Virus record (IMG/VR): IMGVR_UViG_2675903313_000009
DNA: 64,000 bases
Reading direction: 5' to 3' (one strand)
From: a virus
Lineage: Duplodnaviria > Heunggongvirae > Uroviricota > Caudoviricetes
Position numbers and translations under genes: made by a program. The stretch's first letter is position 1; each line of letters begins with the position of its first letter. Of this stretch, positions 2,412-11,150 are shown in pieces. The notes under the pieces are model-generated. The model ran no database searches. It was not told the origin of the DNA and was given only the letters and a program-made list of their open reading frames with translations.

Positions 2412-5400
2412 TTGGACATGGAACAGTTCAAGAAGAAAAAATTACCGCTTCTTATTGCCGGTGCTGGTGGCAAGAAAAGTAAAAGCTCCAGCCGTACCCC
2501 GGTTGAAGCTGATGATACTGTCAATTCTCGTGCTATGGCAGCCATCCTCGACCTTCTTGGCGAGGGGGTTATCGGTGGCCTGGTAAATGGCGCAAAGTCG
2601 ATCTTCATCGACGATTTACCGATCTTGAATGAAGATGGCTCTTCCAACTTCAGCGGTATTACATGGGATTTTCGTGACGGCTCACAAGACCAGACGCCAA
2701 TGGCTGGTTTTGATTTTGTTGAAACGCCTAAGTCCGTAAATATTCAGCTTAAAAAAACACACGACGTTACGGTTTCAATCGATAACGATGAAGCTGATCG
2801 CGTTCGTGTCATCATGAAATTCCCCTCTTTACGTAGCGTTGATAAAAGCTCTGGCGATACAAATGGCACTACGGTGAAGTACAAATTCCAGATCGCCAAC
2901 GCAGACGCAACATTTTCTGATGTAGTGGCAGAAGGTGAGAAAAGCGTTGATATCACGCTAACGGCAAAGAAAACCGGCGTGTATTACCGTAGCCATGAGC
3001 TGAAACTGCCTAAGCCTGGTCGTGCATACAAGGTTAGGGTGATTCGTCTTACAGATGATAATAGTAGCCAGTACCTCTACAACGACACATGGGTTGATTC
3101 CATCGGTGAGATTGTCGACACGCCAATGAACTACCCTAACTCTGCTCTTGTTGGCTTGAAGGTCAATTCAGAGCAGTTTGGTAGCACAATGCCTTCCCGT
3201 TCGTATTTGGTGCGCGGTATCAAAATCCGAGTACCGTCAAACTACAACGAATACACCAATACTTATGTCGGCGTATGGGACGGTACTTTTAAGCTGTTGT
3301 CTTCTTCAAACCCTGCGTGGATTCTCTACGATTTGCTTACCAATACTCGGTATGGTCTTGGGCAATTTGTGTCGGAATCCATGATTGACCTCGGCCAGCT
3401 CTACCAGATTGGTCGATATTGTGACGAAGAGGTCGATGATGGCTTTGGGGGTAAAGAGAAACGCTTTGCAATCAATACGCAGATCACCAGTCGACAAGAC
3501 GCATACCGATTAATTCAGGATATTGCCGGTGCATTCCGCGGCATGGTGTTTTGGGCTGGTGGCATGGTTAACATCATGCAGGATAGCCCATCAGATCCGG
3601 TAATGATGTTTACCAACTCCAACGTCAAAGATGGACTGTTTACCTATAAAGGTTCTGCGCGTAAAGATCGCCCATCCGTTGCGCTCGTAACCTACAACAA
3701 CAAGGAGGACGGTTATAAGCAAAATATCGAGTACGTTGAAGATCAGGACGCAATGCGCCGTTATGGTGAGCGTAAAACAGAAGTCGTAGCATTTGGATGT
3801 ACAAGCCGAGGCCAGGCTCACCGAGTTGGTTTGTGGCTTTTGTATACCGCCAGAATGGAGTCGGATGTAATTACATTTACTGCCGGCTTAGACGCCTCAT
3901 TTCTGATGCCCGGTGAAACCGTTCTGATTCAGAACAAATATCGTGCAGGTAAACGTAACTCCGGTCGAATTGTGGAGTTTACCAAAAACAGCATCACTCT
4001 CGATGCGCCTGTGTCGTTAGCTAAAAGCGGCAGCTTTATTCGGATATTGAATCAGGAAGGCAAAATCGTTGAACGCGATGTTCTTGAAACTGGCGAAAAC
4101 ATAACAAAGGTTACGTTTTCAAAAGCCCTGTCGTCAGCGGAAACGCCTGTTTTGAACGGTGTCTGGACAATTACAGAACCAGATCTCGAACCTATGCGCG
4201 TTCGCATCGTTAACATCGCGCAGGGGGAAACGCCGGGTAGCTTTGACATCACCGCTGTTGAGAACAATCCGTCTAAATATGAGGCAATCGACAATGGTGC
4301 AACGCTGATCCCGCAGAATACGACGGTATTGGACCCAACTTACTCCAAGCCATCTAATCTGCAAATCACTGAAGGGACTTATCTCTCAAGCCCGGGCAAC
4401 CTGTCAGTAAAACTGACTGCAACATGGGAAGGAAAATCTCCAGAGTATTGGATCAGTTGGCGACGTTCTGATGAAAACAATGTATCGAACTGGCAATCGG
4501 CGCGTGTAACCGAAGAGCAATACGAAATCGTTAATGTCGCGGAGAATGGACGCTACGACTTCCAGCTGTATGCGGTTTCATTCAACGGTAAAAAAACAGA
4601 GATTATCAGTACCGTTTATCAGGTGTTGGGCACAATGACACCGCCGGATGCCCCAACGTCATTAACGGCCGTTGGAGACTATCGTAATGTGATACTGAAT
4701 TGGGTTAATCCAGATTCGGTAGACCTTGATCACATTAATGTTTACGCATCCCAGACCAACAATCTGGATACGGCGAAACTGATCGCAGAGTCTGCAAGCA
4801 CCACCTTTACACATGCTGGTCTTGGGGATAGCGAAACGTGGTATTACTGGGTTCGAGCATCGAACAAGCGAGGTATGTTAAGTCCTCCGAACTCAAACTT
4901 GGGTACAGAGGCGGCAACTCGCGATGTACTGTCGTTCCTGACTGGCAAAATTACATCTTCCGAGCTTGGTCAGGCTCTGCTTGAGGACATCAACAGCAAA
5001 GCCTCTCAAGAAGCAGTTGACGAGTTAAATGAGCATATCAACCAGAGCGTCGAATCTTTGGAGGGGGCGGTAAACGACGTTAAGGAAGATATAGCTGAAT
5101 TAGATAAGCAGTTCAGCGATAACCTCGCGAATTTTGAAATAAAATTCAACGAGCGTAGCGATGCTTTGGAGAACGCACAAACCGAGCTTAAAGGTGAGGT
5201 TTCGGCAACGATCGACAAGGTCAATGAAGCGTTTGAAAAAATTGATGCTACTGATGCTGCAATTGTTGAAATCGAAAACACCGTATCTGAACACGATAAA
5301 GCTCTCGCTAATACAGTCGAGGCAATAAAGGCTGCAAGAGATGAAGCGGCGGCTCTTATTGCTAAGGAAAGCGAGGCTCGTGTTGAAGGCGATGCTGCAA

Positions 5401-7142
5401 ACGCTAAACAACTGGAAGTGTTGCAGTCAACGGTAGAGGAAAGCTCCGCTGCCGTTGAAGAAATGAAAAAGACGGTTGCAGAGGTCGATCGTGCCAGTGC
5501 AGAACTGACTACGAACATTGAGGCGTTAGCCAAAACAAATATTGACTTGGCTCTTCGTCAAGATGAAGACCAGCACAAGCAGATGGTCAATAACGCGAAG
5601 ATCGCAACAACACAGAAAACCTTTGCTGATGATATGTCTGCAATGGCCACGAAGGTTGAGGAAATTCGCGTAGAAATTGGCGAAGACATTAAGGCCAGTA
5701 TTCTGGAAGAGTCCACCGCTCGTGCCGATGGCGATGAAGCGTTGGCAAAGCGTGTCACTCAGCTGCAATCTAAGTTTGAAGGAGATATCAGCGCGGCGAT
5801 TAGTACAGAGCAGGAGGCTCGTACATCTGCCGATGAAGCTCTGACGACACAGATCACTCAGCTTGAGTCGAAAGTAAGCAACGATATCGTCGCAGCTATT
5901 AAGGAAGAGCAAGAAGCCCGAGCAACGGAAGATTCGGCTCTGGCAAGCCAGATCACCCAACTTCAGGCAAAGGTTGATGATGATATTTCTGCTGCAATAC
6001 GTAGTGAGCAGGAGGCCCGAGCAAGCGGGGACTCTGCGTTAGCCAAACAAATAAACCAGCTTCAGTCAAAGGTTGACGGTGATATATCCGCTGCCATCAC
6101 TCAGGAGCAGGAGGCCAGAGCAAGTGCTGACCAGGCGCTCTCACGAGAAATTAACAGCCTGCGAGCACAAACCGGAACTGATATTGCCGCAGCGGTTGCT
6201 GTAGAGACAAAAGCAAGGACTGATGCCGATAGTGCATTGTCTACCCAGATTACGTCTCTTACAGCAAAAGCTAATGATCTCAAGGCGTCTCTTGCCAGAG
6301 AAACAACGGCTCGTGCAGATGGTGATACCGCTTTAACAAAAGAGGTTTCAAGTTTAAAAGCACAGACAGCGAAAGATATTAGTGCGGCCGTTGCAGTTGA
6401 AACGCAGGCTCGAACTGATGCTGACTCGGCGTTGTCGTCTCAGATCACCAAGCTGACCTCTCAATACAAAGAGGATATTAAAGCGGCTGTAGCAACCGAA
6501 ACGAAAACGCGTACAGAGCAAGATGCTGCATTGGCAACTCAAATCACAAACTTAGAGTCTCAAACGGCAGCCAACATTTCCGCGGCGGTCACAACTGAAA
6601 CGACAGCGAGAACGCAGGCAGATAATGCTCTGAGTGGGCGAATCGATACTCTGAAAGCAGAGGTGAATGGAAATACCGCGACAATTCAACAGCAGGCAAC
6701 AGCTATTGCTGATACCAACAAAAAAGTGTCAACCGCGTGGACGTTGAAAATGGAGACTTCAACGAGCGGAGGGCAGAAGTATGTTGCCGGTATTGCGCTT
6801 GGTATTGACACCACTGGGCTATCTCAGTTTTTGGTTCAGGCGGACAGGTTTGGTTTGGTCAACTCTGTTAACGGGAAGATCACAACGCCATTTGTTATCG
6901 AAAACAGTATCGCCTATATGAATGGAGCGTATATCAAGGATGGCACAATCACCAATGCAAAAGTAGGCGATCTGCAATCTACCAATTTTGTTAGCGGTAG
7001 ATCTGGATGGCGGTTCGGCAAAAATGGAACGCTTGAGATCAACGGTAATAGCGGCGGCAATGGGCGATTGGTTATAAATGGTCAGCGGATTGACGTTTAT
7101 GACGATAACAACGTCCTACGAGTAAGAATTGGCCGTCTGTGA
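2412..7142 (+). CDS. Host specificity / tail tip protein J (lambda gpJ-like) with a long central coiled-coil repeat insert
   Basis: 1576 aa; N-terminal and later blocks (FRDGSQDQTP, GCTSRGQAHR, KITSSELGQALLED, GQKYVAGIALGID..LSQFLVQADRF) match lambda J from memory; about 570 aa of heptad-rich tandem repeats lie in the middle. Confidence 0.9.
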   Translation: MDMEQFKKKKLPLLIAGAGGKKSKSSSRTPVEADDTVNSRAMAAILDLLGEGVIGGLVNGAKSIFIDDLPILNEDGSSNFSGITWDFRDGSQDQTPMAGFDFVETPKSVNIQLKKTHDVTVSIDNDEADRVRVIMKFPSLRSVDKSSGDTNGTTVKYKFQIANADATFSDVVAEGEKSVDITLTAKKTGVYYRSHELKLPKPGRAYKVRVIRLTDDNSSQYLYNDTWVDSIGEIVDTPMNYPNSALVGLKVNSEQFGSTMPSRSYLVRGIKIRVPSNYNEYTNTYVGVWDGTFKLLSSSNPAWILYDLLTNTRYGLGQFVSESMIDLGQLYQIGRYCDEEVDDGFGGKEKRFAINTQITSRQDAYRLIQDIAGAFRGMVFWAGGMVNIMQDSPSDPVMMFTNSNVKDGLFTYKGSARKDRPSVALVTYNNKEDGYKQNIEYVEDQDAMRRYGERKTEVVAFGCTSRGQAHRVGLWLLYTARMESDVITFTAGLDASFLMPGETVLIQNKYRAGKRNSGRIVEFTKNSITLDAPVSLAKSGSFIRILNQEGKIVERDVLETGENITKVTFSKALSSAETPVLNGVWTITEPDLEPMRVRIVNIAQGETPGSFDITAVENNPSKYEAIDNGATLIPQNTTVLDPTYSKPSNLQITEGTYLSSPGNLSVKLTATWEGKSPEYWISWRRSDENNVSNWQSARVTEEQYEIVNVAENGRYDFQLYAVSFNGKKTEIISTVYQVLGTMTPPDAPTSLTAVGDYRNVILNWVNPDSVDLDHINVYASQTNNLDTAKLIAESASTTFTHAGLGDSETWYYWVRASNKRGMLSPPNSNLGTEAATRDVLSFLTGKITSSELGQALLEDINSKASQEAVDELNEHINQSVESLEGAVNDVKEDIAELDKQFSDNLANFEIKFNERSDALENAQTELKGEVSATIDKVNEAFEKIDATDAAIVEIENTVSEHDKALANTVEAIKAARDEAAALIAKESEARVEGDAANAKQLEVLQSTVEESSAAVEEMKKTVAEVDRASAELTTNIEALAKTNIDLALRQDEDQHKQMVNNAKIATTQKTFADDMSAMATKVEEIRVEIGEDIKASILEESTARADGDEALAKRVTQLQSKFEGDISAAISTEQEARTSADEALTTQITQLESKVSNDIVAAIKEEQEARATEDSALASQITQLQAKVDDDISAAIRSEQEARASGDSALAKQINQLQSKVDGDISAAITQEQEARASADQALSREINSLRAQTGTDIAAAVAVETKARTDADSALSTQITSLTAKANDLKASLARETTARADGDTALTKEVSSLKAQTAKDISAAVAVETQARTDADSALSSQITKLTSQYKEDIKAAVATETKTRTEQDAALATQITNLESQTAANISAAVTTETTARTQADNALSGRIDTLKAEVNGNTATIQQQATAIADTNKKVSTAWTLKMETSTSGGQKYVAGIALGIDTTGLSQFLVQADRFGLVNSVNGKITTPFVIENSIAYMNGAYIKDGTITNAKVGDLQSTNFVSGRSGWRFGKNGTLEINGNSGGNGRLVINGQRIDVYDDNNVLRVRIGRL
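5000..6700 (+). repeat. Tandem coding repeats (units of about 33-36 codons) inside J: Q/E-rich coiled-coil modules (..QITQLQSKV.DDISAAI..EQEARA.AD.AL..)
   Basis: At least 12 consecutive similar units visible in the translation; antisense ORFs listed here by the track are artefacts of the repeat. Confidence 0.75.
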
Positions 7143-7235: not shown

Positions 7236-10200
7236 ATGTGGTACAGGGAAGGTACTATCACATTTACACAGGGTAGCAATACTCTGGTTGGGGCAGGGAC
7301 AGCCTGGAATGTAACAGCTAATGGTGTGTTGCCGGGGATGATCGTCATTGGCCCCGACAATAAGCTGTATGAGATCAAGCGCGTAATAAGCGATACGAAT
7401 ATTGTTCTCTCAGAACCTTATACCGGCGAAACTCAGTCTGAGGTTCCGTGCCGAATCATTACGACCTATGAAGGCGACTTAACACAGTTTAGCGCGCGCT
7501 TTACTGCGCTAATGTCGCGTATGTCGGCTGATTCCAAGTCCATACGCAGTTGGTTGACTGCGCTGGATGAGGTGACAATCGAGCGTGAAGACGGTACAGA
7601 AGTGACCGTTAAGCCGCTAATGCAGATCGTCAACGAGCACAACGAAAACGTTGAGTGGTATAAAAATAACACTGACGCGATTGATGCTGCTGGCGACAAA
7701 GCTCGTGAGGCGGCGGCCAGTGCTGCCGCAGCAGCAAAAAGCGCCAATGTCGCTGGAGAAAAAGCCTCTCAAGCGTCTCAAAGTGCATCCGCTGCGGCAT
7801 CCTCACAAAGTGCCGCAAGTGCGAGTGCAACTGCTGCGAAAAAATCTGAAACGAATGCTGCAGCGTCACAAAAATCTGCAGCCACTTCTGCATCCACCGC
7901 GACCACGAAGGCGTCAGAAGCTGCCACCTCAGCCCGGGATGCGGCGGCCTCAAAAGAGGCAGCGAAATCATCAGAAACGAGCGCTGCCTCGAGCGCCGGC
8001 AGTGCAGCTTCCTCGGCAACGGCGGCAGGAAATTCCGCGAAGGCCGCAAAAACGTCTGAGACGAATGCGGATAACAGCGCACAGGCGGCAGCAGACTCAC
8101 AAACTGCATCGGCAAACTCCGCGACAGCAGCCAAAAAATCAGAAACCAACGCGAAAAATAGTGAGGCAGCAGCAAAGGTCAGCGAAACCAACGCTAAAGC
8201 GTCAGAGAACAAGGCGAAAGAATATCTCGACAAGGTCGGGGGACTCGTCAGCCCGATGACGCAATACGATTGGCCCGTTGTTACTGGTAATGAGTCTTTT
8301 TACATAAAGATCGCGAAACTTTCCGATCCCGGAAGCAACAATTGCCATGTAACGCTAATGGTTACTAACGGCGGTGACTACGGCTCCCCTTACGGAAACA
8401 TTGACTTTATCGAGATCTCGGCGCGCGGTCTGCCTTCTTCGCTTACTGCTGATAATGTATCTCGTTACCTGAGTATACGCCGTTTAGGGCCAACCGGGCT
8501 AATCAATAGCATGCAAATGCGTTACGGCCTGGTTAAAGGTGATGGCTTTATTGAGGTTTGGGCCTTCCAGCGTGCATTTATCAACGGCGCAAAGGTTGCG
8601 GTACTGGCGCAGACGGCACGCACGGAATTATACATTCCAGACGGATTTGTTAAGCAAACCGCCGCGCCTTCTGGATATGTTGAAGGCAACGTTGTAAGGA
8701 TTTACGACCAGGTAAACAAGCCGTCGAAATCGGATGTTGGACTTGGCAACGTAACGAACGATGCGCAGGTAAAAAAAACCGGCGATACAATGACCGGTGG
8801 GCTTACTTTTGCAAACGACTCAATCCTTGCCTGGATTCGGAATACTGACTGGGCGAAGATTGGATTTAAAAATGATGCCGATGGTGACACTGATTCATAC
8901 ATGTGGTTTGAAACAGGCGACAACGGCAATGAATATTTCAAATGGAGAAGCCGCCAGAGCACCACAACAAAAGACCTGATGAATCTTAAATGGGATGCTT
9001 TGTCTGTTCTTGTTAAAGCCCTTTTCAGCAGTGAAGTAAAAATATCGACAGTCAATGCACTGAGGATTTTTAATTCATCCTTTGGTGCTATTTTTCGCCG
9101 TTCTGAAGAAAGCCTGTATATCATCCCTACACGAGAAAATGAGGGTGAAAATGGAGATATTGGGCCATTAAGGCCATTCAACATCAACTTAAGAACAGGA
9201 GTTGTGTCTGTTGGTCATGGACTAAATGTTACTGGTGGCGTTAATGGTAGTTTGAACGGTAATGCTTCAACAGCTACGAAGTTGCAGACTGCGCGTACTA
9301 TTAATGGGGTGTCGTTTGACGGTTCTAAAAACATTGAGCTAACTCCAAGGTCTATAGGAACGATCAACTCAGCAACAATGTCTTTTAGTGGTGGTGCCGG
9401 ATGGTTCAAGCTGGCAACTGTAACCATGCCACAGGCCAGTTCCGTGGTTTACATAAGCCTGATTGGTGGTGCAGGGTATAACGTTGGCGCCCCGCAGCAA
9501 GCAGGCATCTCTGAGCTGGTTCTGCGTGCCGGAAATGGAAATCCAAAGGGTATTACTGGTGCATTATGGCGACGGACATCGGTTGGATTTACTAATTTTG
9601 CATGGGTGAATACATCCGGTGATACCTATGATGTTTATGTTGAAATAGGTAATTACGCCACAGGTGTTAATATTCAGTGGGATTATACCAGTAACGCCAG
9701 CGTAACGATTCATACATCACCAACTTATACAGCGAATAAACCAACTGGTCTTACTGATGGAACGGTATATGTCATTTACAGTTCGCACATTAAACCGACC
9801 GCCACGGATGTCGGCGCATTACCAATAACCGGAGGAAATCTCAACGGCGGTTTAACGGCTACTGGTGAGATCATTTCAAAATCGGCGAATGGTCTGCGCA
9901 TTGCCTATGGCAACTATGGATTCTTTATCCGTAATGACGGCGGCAGCACATATTTCATGCTAACAGCATCAGGAGATACATTAGGTTCATGGAACGGTTT
10001 GCGACCTATTACAATTAATAATACCAGCGGTGCTGTATCAATTGGTAATGGACTAAATGTGACTGGTGGCGTAAATGGTAGTTTGAACGGTAATGCTTCA
10101 ACAGCTACGAAGTTGCAAACAGCGAGAAACATCAATGGTGTTAAGTTTGATGGTTCAGGCGATATCAATATTAATACATTGGTATCTCGTGGCCGAGTTA

Positions 10201-11150
10201 CGGCGTTAAGCGGCTCTACTCAAGGCACTGCTGGCATTCAAATGTATGAGGCGTACAACAATAGCTACCCGACCACGTATGGCAACGTATTGCACATGAA
10301 AGGTGCGAGTGCTGCTGGTGAGAGCGAGTTGCTTATTGGCTGGAGTGGTACGAGCGGTGCACATGCGCCAGTTTTCATTCGCTCACGAAGAGATAACACA
10401 GGTGCAGCATGGTCAGCGTGGGCGCAGGTATATACCGCTAAGGATTCAATCCCTGGTGTGAATACAACTGGTAATCAGAACACTACTGGTAATGCCGCAA
10501 CCGCCACAAAATTGCAGACAGCAAGGAAAATTGCTGGTGTGGCGTTTGATGGCTCTGCCGATATAACTTTGACTGCGGCTAACCTTAATGCTTACACGAA
10601 AACAGAGGTAGCAAACCTTCTAAGTTCCTATGCAAGCAGATCATCACTGACAGGCTATAGTGGCAACCTGGATATTGTTGCTGAAACACTGGTTGTCAAA
10701 TCAGGCGGTAGTGGAGGGTTTGCTATATGGGATATTGGCACAACTACTAGCGGTGCCAATATGTACATTGATCCAAACCCAGGTATCAATACAGTTTGGC
10801 GTTCAACGTCTTCAAGGCGCTATAAAAAGGATATTGAAACATTACAAGATCGATATGCTGATGAACTTTTGTCATTAAGACCTGTTTGGTATCGTTCAAT
10901 TTGTCGAGGTGACCGAAAGAATTGGGGGTATTACGGCCTTATTGCTGAAGAGGTTGGTGAGATTGCCCCGCAATATGTCCATTGGCGTGAACCAACAAAT
11001 AATGATTCTCCAGAAGATATTTCCTCAAATGGTATGGTCGCTGAAGGAGTGATGTATGAGCGTTTGGTTGTACCACTCATTCATCATATTCAGCAATTGA
11101 CCAAAAGGGTTGAGGAGCTTGAAACGAAGTTAAATTCACCTAAAGAATAA
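7236..11150 (+). CDS. Side tail fibre protein with C-terminal intramolecular chaperone (S74-like autoproteolytic) domain
   Basis: 1304 aa; AGGAG RBS upstream; Ala/Ser-rich low-complexity stretch; motif [20 protein letters not shown] present three times; C-terminal block ([22 protein letters not shown]...GLIAEEV) resembles fibre chaperone domains. Confidence 0.8.

Follow-up and report, generated by a model that had tools for sequence, protein, structure and literature searches.

The ten-unit helical shaft of a lambda J-type central tail fibre in an SSU5-like phage-plasmid, a possible fold-switching element

The only answer of its kind proposed for how a non-contractile tail gains the energy to breach the outer membrane, a coiled coil refolding to a beta-prism, rests on one pyocin. 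The question is raised here by a J-type central tail fibre gene (2418-7142, plus strand; 1574 residues and a stop codon) in IMG/VR virus record IMGVR_UViG_2675903313_000009, a 64,000-nucleotide stretch of caudoviricete DNA hereafter called the window. In F-type pyocins, the segment homologous to part of this protein has been resolved as a trimeric coiled-coil shaft bearing side fibres (PMC13455828; bioRxiv 10.64898/2026.02.24.707460; PMC12874032). The shaft of the F7 pyocin, 163 residues or about five 33-residue units long, refolds to a triangular beta-prism on cell contact, whereupon the tip opens and the tape measure protein is ejected (PMC12874032, a preprint), and killing is lost when mutations destabilise the prism alone (PMC12874032). 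The window encodes a much longer shaft with ten regular units, and we asked whether this shaft is better understood as a rod or as a segment that could undergo the same change.

A repeat-built shaft inserted in a lambda J-type fibre

A preliminary description, made from the letters of the window alone, had called the gene product a lambda J-type tail tip protein of 1576 residues. The family assignment is supported by the tail tip genes L, K and I directly upstream, by Pfam domains and by lambda J aligning on both sides of the array, and on this sequence evidence we assign the gene as the central tail fibre (TipJ/lambda J family) of an SSU5-like Escherichia coli phage-plasmid. The length depends on the start codon: the single open reading frame (ORF; 2412-7142, plus strand) has 1576 codons when counted from a TTG at 2412, and the ATG at 2418, which gives 1574 residues, agrees with the start annotated in phage Cyrano (CYRAN_20). 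This Cyrano gene, named for a 'tail host specificity protein J', shares 95% nucleotide identity with the gene in the window, which also matches phrog_31 (central tail fiber J). E. coli LF82 carries Cyrano as its SSU5-like phage-plasmid pLF82 (PMC9928086).

Residues 3-837 of lambda J (8iyk_J) align to residues 20-860 of the window protein (phmmer, E 4e-127), and residues 840-971 align to residues 1419-1547. Because lambda J aligns to these two regions only, residues 861-1418 (558 residues; 4998-6671) are an insert relative to lambda J, and the segment singled out beforehand (5000-6700, residues 861-1427) is indeed the one without a lambda J counterpart. The part on the N-terminal side (residues 1-860; 2418-4997, plus strand), collinear with lambda J, has the hub and FNIII architecture of the family, with the Pfam domains FNIII-A_GpJ (PF24801, residues 101-235), Phage-tail_3 (PF13550, residues 357-520) and fn3 (PF00041, residues 744-823), and it also matches the F2 pyocin fibre (25vf_A) and phage T1 gp33 (9l9p_S). 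The insert itself contains no proline.

The preliminary description had filled this whole segment with an array of about 570 residues made of 33-36-residue repeats. The unit has 33 residues, not 33-36, and regular repeats occupy only residues 1079-1407 (329 residues; 5652-6638, plus strand), where register, a unit hidden Markov model (HMM) and alignment define ten tandem 33-residue units, one of which has 32 residues. The unit consensus is QITxLxSKxxxDISAAIxxETxARAxADxALxx, in which D12, A15, E20, R24, D28, A30 and L31 are invariant, positions 10-11 are rich in Gly, Asn and Asp, and position 27 is Gly or Ala. Autocorrelation peaks at lags of 33, 66 and 99 residues; identity at lag 33 reaches 0.48 in residues 1079-1407, compared with at most 0.18 at any lag in 2000 shuffles, and the HMM recovers ten units, each with an E value of 1e-16 to 1e-20. 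The hydrophobic period of the repeats, 3.66 residues, lies above shuffled controls and equals 11/3, or three hendecads per unit. Tandem Repeats Finder detected no array in the DNA, because the units are too diverged at that level: nucleotide identity between units averages 51% and peaks at 71% (units 4 and 5), and the longest exact shared run is 12 nucleotides. This strong divergence argues that the array is old and not a recent expansion. The 32-residue unit is unit 7 (6246-6341, residues 1277-1308), which is aberrant in the CMS-2020a/PhiR41_1 lineage as well; the conserved one-residue skip would locally shift the helical register.

The insert upstream of the array shares the helical character of the repeats. 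Residues 861-1078 (218 residues) contain no proline and three glycines; Ala makes up 17% and Glu 14%, and the hydrophobic period is 3.56 (power 157, compared with 76 at the 99th percentile of shuffles). Lag-identity analysis and the unit HMM revealed no 33-residue periodicity in this region, apart from one weak partial HMM match at residues 978-994, so that the array does not span the whole insert. The proximal shaft proper (residues 861-1039; 4998-5534, plus strand) is helical in character and non-periodic, and it differs among relatives by insertions and deletions. It is followed by a conserved non-repeat block (residues 1040-1078, beginning TNIDLALRQDEDQHKQ; 5535-5651, plus strand), to which we return below.

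A strand-like pattern within a predicted helix

A monomer covering residues 1178-1574, which includes seven units, was modelled with AlphaFold2 from the single sequence and from a 77-sequence alignment. Both models contain one continuous helix over the seven units, with a predicted local distance difference test score of ~80-90. Lack of proline, periodic hydrophobicity and this predicted helix together mark the segment between FNIII and the beta-prism as coiled-coil-prone, and the long fibrous extension proposed in the preliminary description fits the trimeric coiled-coil shaft that the equivalent region forms in F-type pyocins. The two models differ at one place. From the single sequence the helix runs to residue 260 of the construct, whereas with the alignment it ends at residue 229 and strands begin at 234. 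The change from helix to strand is confined to residues ~1411-1437, starting in the partial unit at the junction between the array and the beta domain (residues 1408-1421; 6639-6680, plus strand; strand from about residue 1411 with the alignment). The strands of the alignment-based model therefore begin right after the last unit, in the place that the seed strand occupies in the study of He et al. (PMC12874032). These authors predicted the folds of trimers from deep versus shallow alignments; each strand of the F7 prism carries the motif SxSxxMxxLxS, and both folds were predicted in 24 phage homologues (PMC12874032).

The strand motif is strongly enriched in the shaft of the window. Residues 861-1418 contain 33 matches, compared with 7.5 +/- 2.7 (maximum 18) in 2000 shuffles. 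Across the ten units, forward matches (e.g. ALAKQINQLQS) and reverse matches (e.g. AAITQEQEARA) alternate strictly at spacings of 18 and 15 residues, so that the alternation described by He et al. (PMC12874032) recurs every 33 residues, and it extends partly upstream, from about residue 920. The corresponding fragment of the F2 pyocin has the same forward-reverse-forward order at spacings of 17 and 15. Each unit can thus be parsed as two potential 11-residue strands joined by linkers of 7 and 4 residues. Invariant D12 and D28 fall within these linkers, as do positions 10-11 and 27, which are rich in Gly, Asn and Asp. Judged from the sequence, such conservation of linkers would be unexpected inside a plain helix, and the invariant E20-R24 pair fits the salt bridge at the 'M' position described by He et al. 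(PMC12874032).

Homology to the pyocin fibres continues through the distal shaft and the tip with the same motif spacing. With the F2 fibre (25vf_A) as the stand-in for F7 in all of our pyocin comparisons, its residues 927-1193 align to residues 1274-1546 at E 3.7e-24; the published criterion was a BLAST E value below 1e-6 against F7 itself. The F-type central fibres (PA0641/PyoF10; F2 25vf, F7) and the window protein also share the order of hub, FNIII, trimeric helical shaft and PF09327-type beta-prism, and neither ends in a C-terminal receptor-binding domain of its own. They differ in that the pyocin shaft has ~163-180 residues with about five degenerate units and is described as heptad-based, whereas the window shaft has 558 residues with ten regular units of period 11/3. 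In the pyocin clusters, small tip-binding protein genes (PyoF11/12, PA0642) follow directly, in place of the 1304-residue fibre gene of the window, and the pyocin is a bacteriocin whereas the window protein belongs to a DNA-delivering phage. The shaft of the window is a long, regular member of this known and recently characterised class of central-fibre shafts.

On these grounds we lean, with only modest confidence, towards a shaft that would be a metastable trimeric coiled coil and would refold to a beta-prism when the receptor is engaged. In this scheme the 558-residue proline-free helical shaft lies between the second FNIII domain, which closes the tail tip, and the distal PF09327 beta-prism. 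Before infection, by homology, three chains would form a parallel coiled-coil shaft of ~80 nm, if continuous, that would keep the tip domain at a distance from the tail and would probably bear side fibres. Each 33-residue unit could alternatively form a beta-hairpin of two opposed 11-residue strands with Asp/Gly/Asn-rich turns of 7 and 4 residues. Engagement of the receptor would then let the coiled coil refold to a stacked triangular beta-prism, as reported for F7, with three consequences: a several-fold shorter fibre, an opened tail tip and a released tape measure protein. The estimated lengths are ~83 nm for the coiled coil (558 x 0.1485 nm) and ~16 nm for the prism (~34 strands x 0.48 nm); such a collapse, if true, would be a stroke some three to four times that of the F7 pyocin.

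The principal alternative, to which we assign an appreciable but clearly smaller probability, is a static spacer. In that case the coiled-coil rod would be stable and keep its fold throughout; it would only determine how far the tip domain reaches, for instance across O-antigen or capsule, and anchor the side fibres, and unit number would do no more than tune length. The AlphaFold2 helix obtained with and without the alignment is what such a rod predicts, as is the wide length variation among relatives, and a 1229-residue E. coli variant with a single unit, found on plasmid-sized contigs of ~105-114 kb, indicates that units are dispensable. A spacer leaves unexplained, however, why invariant Asp and Gly/Asn-rich positions are fixed within a helix, why 11-residue segments alternate so strictly between forward and reverse, and why the charged E20/R24 pair sits at core-like positions; moreover, the homologous pyocin segment does switch, and its switching is needed (PMC12874032).

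Several points weigh against the refolding shaft. In the monomer predictions the repeats stayed helical whether 1 or 77 sequences were supplied, and no beta alternative appeared; the case for the switch is drawn from homology and from the pattern of the sequence. The motif is a loose one that helices rich in Ala, Ser and Thr readily match; the shuffles control for composition and not for helix-specific order. Experimental support for the switch comes from one preprint, on a pyocin and not on a phage, and according to its authors lambda and T5, which infect without such a switch, do not use it (PMC12874032). Our sequence comparison rests on F2 and not on F7, which showed the switch, and the heptad-based description of the F2/PAO1 shaft, set against the 11/3 period here, means that packing may differ. 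The continuity of an 80 nm rod is assumed, and both unit 7 and the conserved block may kink it. Micrographs of Cyrano report only a 259 nm tail and nothing on a fibre (PMC9928086), and literature searches on the SSU5 J protein returned nothing on the fibre beyond that overall tail length.

A further step, which we offer as a tentative and rather doubtful extension of the refolding model, is that the unit is the elementary 'hairpin quantum' of a fold-switching spring, with unit number setting both stroke and stored energy. The window family would be a DNA-injecting phage that carries the module in regular, countable form, with natural variants that differ only in unit number, and such variants make the fold-switch hypothesis testable by microscopy and genetics. 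The allelic series of 1, 4, 5, 6, 9, 10 and ~22 units could relate stroke length to envelope penetration and to the thickness of the host surface. The phage-plasmid family is common, with Yersinia pestis pMT1 and Salmonella Typhi pHCM2 among its relatives. The result would also be relevant to attempts to engineer the host range of phage-plasmids through which resistance genes spread. Should the shaft prove to be no more than a spacer, the series would be ordinary polymorphism in the length of a tail fibre.

Occurrence and unit number among relatives

The array was found at 95% nucleotide identity or more in 167 of 5426 complete E. coli genomes (~3%), always on plasmids and never on a chromosome, and at 99% protein identity or more in over 140 PLSDB plasmids. 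The preliminary description had named an assembly artefact as the finding that would undo its proposal. These counts effectively refute both an artefact and a decaying pseudogene in a defective plasmid prophage, an explanation whose probability we regard as negligible. Many J fragments in short-read assemblies are cut inside the shaft, as that explanation would have it, but the reading frame is intact, the divergence of the units in DNA makes assembly easy, and Cyrano produces virions (PMC9928086). The cut fragments were also considered as a sign of instability of the locus; this was rejected, as arbitrary contig ends explain them equally well.

Unit number, whose comparison among related phages the preliminary description had proposed as a check, differs widely within the SSU5-type elements. 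One unit is present in the 1229-residue E. coli allele, four in S. Typhi pHCM2, five in SSU5, an Enterobacter plasmid and E. coli S56, six in Y. pestis pMT1, nine in E. coli CT01 and PhiR41_1, ten in the window, Cyrano and CMS-2020a, and 21-22 in a 2138-residue database protein (P0121). The distance from FNIII to the tip domain ranges from 125 to ~1020 residues. Relative to the window, CT01 carries an exact in-frame 99-nucleotide deletion with its junction in short homology between units 4 and 5, and in another relative (P0001) one unit is missing through a second junction inside the same pair of units; these are at least two independent unequal-exchange events. The comparison thus shows that unit number changes through in-register unequal recombination, giving an allelic series from 1 to ~22 units. 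The length variation by recombination foreseen for the array is borne out by this range and by the two 99-nucleotide deletions, but its expected frequency was overstated: the allele is near-uniform across the 167 genomes, and among the full-length matches listed all have an identical 1137-nucleotide span except that of strain CT01. Unit-number changes are therefore rare, and the locus is not hypervariable. In one complete E. coli plasmid (NZ_CP029421.1), only 68% of the shaft query matched in two places, and its J gene may be disrupted or rearranged.

A search with the unit profile retrieved 881 proteins among 1.84 billion cluster representatives. Since some of these contain more than 20 matched stretches, the ten-unit array is long but not extreme. 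T1 gp33 (9l9p_S; PMC11945409) resembles the window protein in being a J-like fibre whose tip domain is preceded by 33-residue helical repeats and in having the same ...RVxIGRL C-terminal end. It has ~3-4 units in 1172 residues, whereas the window protein has ten; its fibre part is flexible and unresolved, and AlphaFold3 predicts ~37 nm (PMC11945409). T1 is a virulent member of the Drexlerviridae with a separate small receptor-binding protein, and no gene of that kind is evident beside the J gene of the window. Lambda J (8iyk, 8xcj) shares the collinear hub/FNIII and PF09327 parts and the gene order L-K-I-J, but in place of the 558-residue shaft it has essentially none (residues 837 and 840 flank the insertion point), and it has a C-terminal LamB-binding domain that the window protein lacks. 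DEV gp56 (9ze4; PMC12892993) and the SU10 tail tip fibre (7z4b) have the helical-repeat and PF09327 module with an IG(R/N)L end; both are short podovirus fibres without the J hub that the window protein possesses. In DEV, the tip of this module recruits the separate receptor-binding proteins gp54 and gp55 (PMC12892993).

Helical repeats with PF09327 also stand C-terminal to a T7-type tail fibre N-terminal domain (PF03906) in six database proteins (P0103, P0111, P0277, P0285, P0287 and P0315). The occurrence of the module in PF03906-type fibres and in podovirus fibres such as DEV gp56 and SU10 points to its exchange between tail types. By these sequence matches, the shaft is a widespread variable module and is not unique to the protein in the window. 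Klebsiella-type SSU5-like plasmids carry inserts of another composition at the same insertion point: the J proteins of the K. pneumoniae HKC1 plasmid (4079 residues; L012:364-12603) and of an E. coli O9:H10 plasmid (3662 residues; L013:181-11169, minus strand) have inserts of 2931 and 2647 residues, respectively, which are not 33-residue repeats and contain Pro- and aromatic-rich non-helical stretches and an ILEI-like PF15711 match.

The fibre tip, the downstream fibre and neighbouring genes

The beta domain distal to the shaft is Phage_Tail_Tip (PF09327, residues 1422-1556; 6681-7085, plus strand; Pfam E 1.4e-41), the central straight-fibre domain of the family, which aligns to lambda J residues 840-971. 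In a Foldseek search with the AlphaFold2 model, the tip domain alone recovered matches, which were to the lambda J central fibre (8xcj/8xci) and the SU10 tail tip fibre (7z4b). The translation ends 18 residues past PF09327 (...VYDDNNVLRVRIGRL, with the final residues VLRVRIGRL; 7086-7142 with the stop codon, plus strand), and no lambda-type C-terminal receptor-binding domain (PF12421 region) is present in the window protein. The region after the array is thus as short as had been noticed beforehand. This receptor-binding domain varies within the J family and does not define it. Two alternative C-termini occur among the relatives: the short ...RVRIGRL end of the window, and an end with 143-169 extra residues in pMT1, pHCM2 and E. 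coli S56 (L006:1921-6552, L007:1921-6303 and L010:1918-6495). Two fragments (P0031 and P0066) with a similar C-terminal extension are annotated with PF12421, and pMT1 has an additional DUF4376 gene between J and the fibre gene.

Downstream of J lies a probable side fibre gene (7236-11150, plus strand) that encodes a 1304-residue tail fibre with Mu S-like and T4 gp34 trimerisation segments (Gp34_trimer) and a C-terminal S74 chaperone domain (Peptidase_S74). Its N-terminal ~200-330 residues are common, at 56-98% identity, to the fibres of Cyrano, SSU5, pMT1, pHCM2, the Enterobacter plasmid and PhiR41_1; the distal part is mosaic, and even Cyrano differs past residue 281. We considered whether the repeats could instead be a docking platform, offering multiple sites for this fibre or for accessory proteins so that more units would carry more fibres. 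The precedent is the F-type pyocin, in which an acidic kink of the helical shaft is the attachment point of three side-fibre trimers (PMC12874032; PMC13455828); the N-terminal domain that the downstream fibres have in common across the family also favours this reading. A platform of repeats is nevertheless improbable: pyocin docking uses one short discontinuity and not regular repeats, unit number is unrelated to fibre length or type, and the best candidate site is the non-repeat block at residues 1040-1078, which is kept when a single unit is left. We also considered whether the length of the shaft goes with that of the downstream fibre and dropped the idea, as ten loci showed no trend.

The block at residues 1040-1078 may be read as a candidate side-fibre docking site or kink, a speculation drawn from the docking of pyocin side fibres at an acidic kink. 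Of nine SSU5-family J proteins aligned, six share an identical 16-residue core of the block and two others depart from it at a single position, and the block is retained even in the 1229-residue variant. Klebsiella-type J proteins lack it, and the N-terminus of their downstream fibre is different as well. A PDB sequence search with the downstream fibre of the window matched only Mu S and T4 gp34 and no pyocin side fibre, so that docking on the shaft stays an analogy.

The genes upstream of J, all on the plus strand, follow the order annotated in Cyrano. They encode minor tail protein L (298-1029; Phage_tail_L, PF05100, E 7e-97; positioned as CYRAN_17), tail tip assembly protein K (995-1819, exact start codon uncertain; NlpC/P60 and Prok-JAB domains, phrog_30; counterpart of CYRAN_18) and tail assembly protein I (1807-2400, exact start codon uncertain; phrog_32, E 7e-63; counterpart of CYRAN_19), which places J after the tail tip genes as in other members of its family. 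Minus-strand ORFs of 100-175 codons overlie the shaft region (5006-5533, 5100-5411 and 5526-5960); biased codon content most likely accounts for them, and they were treated as spurious.

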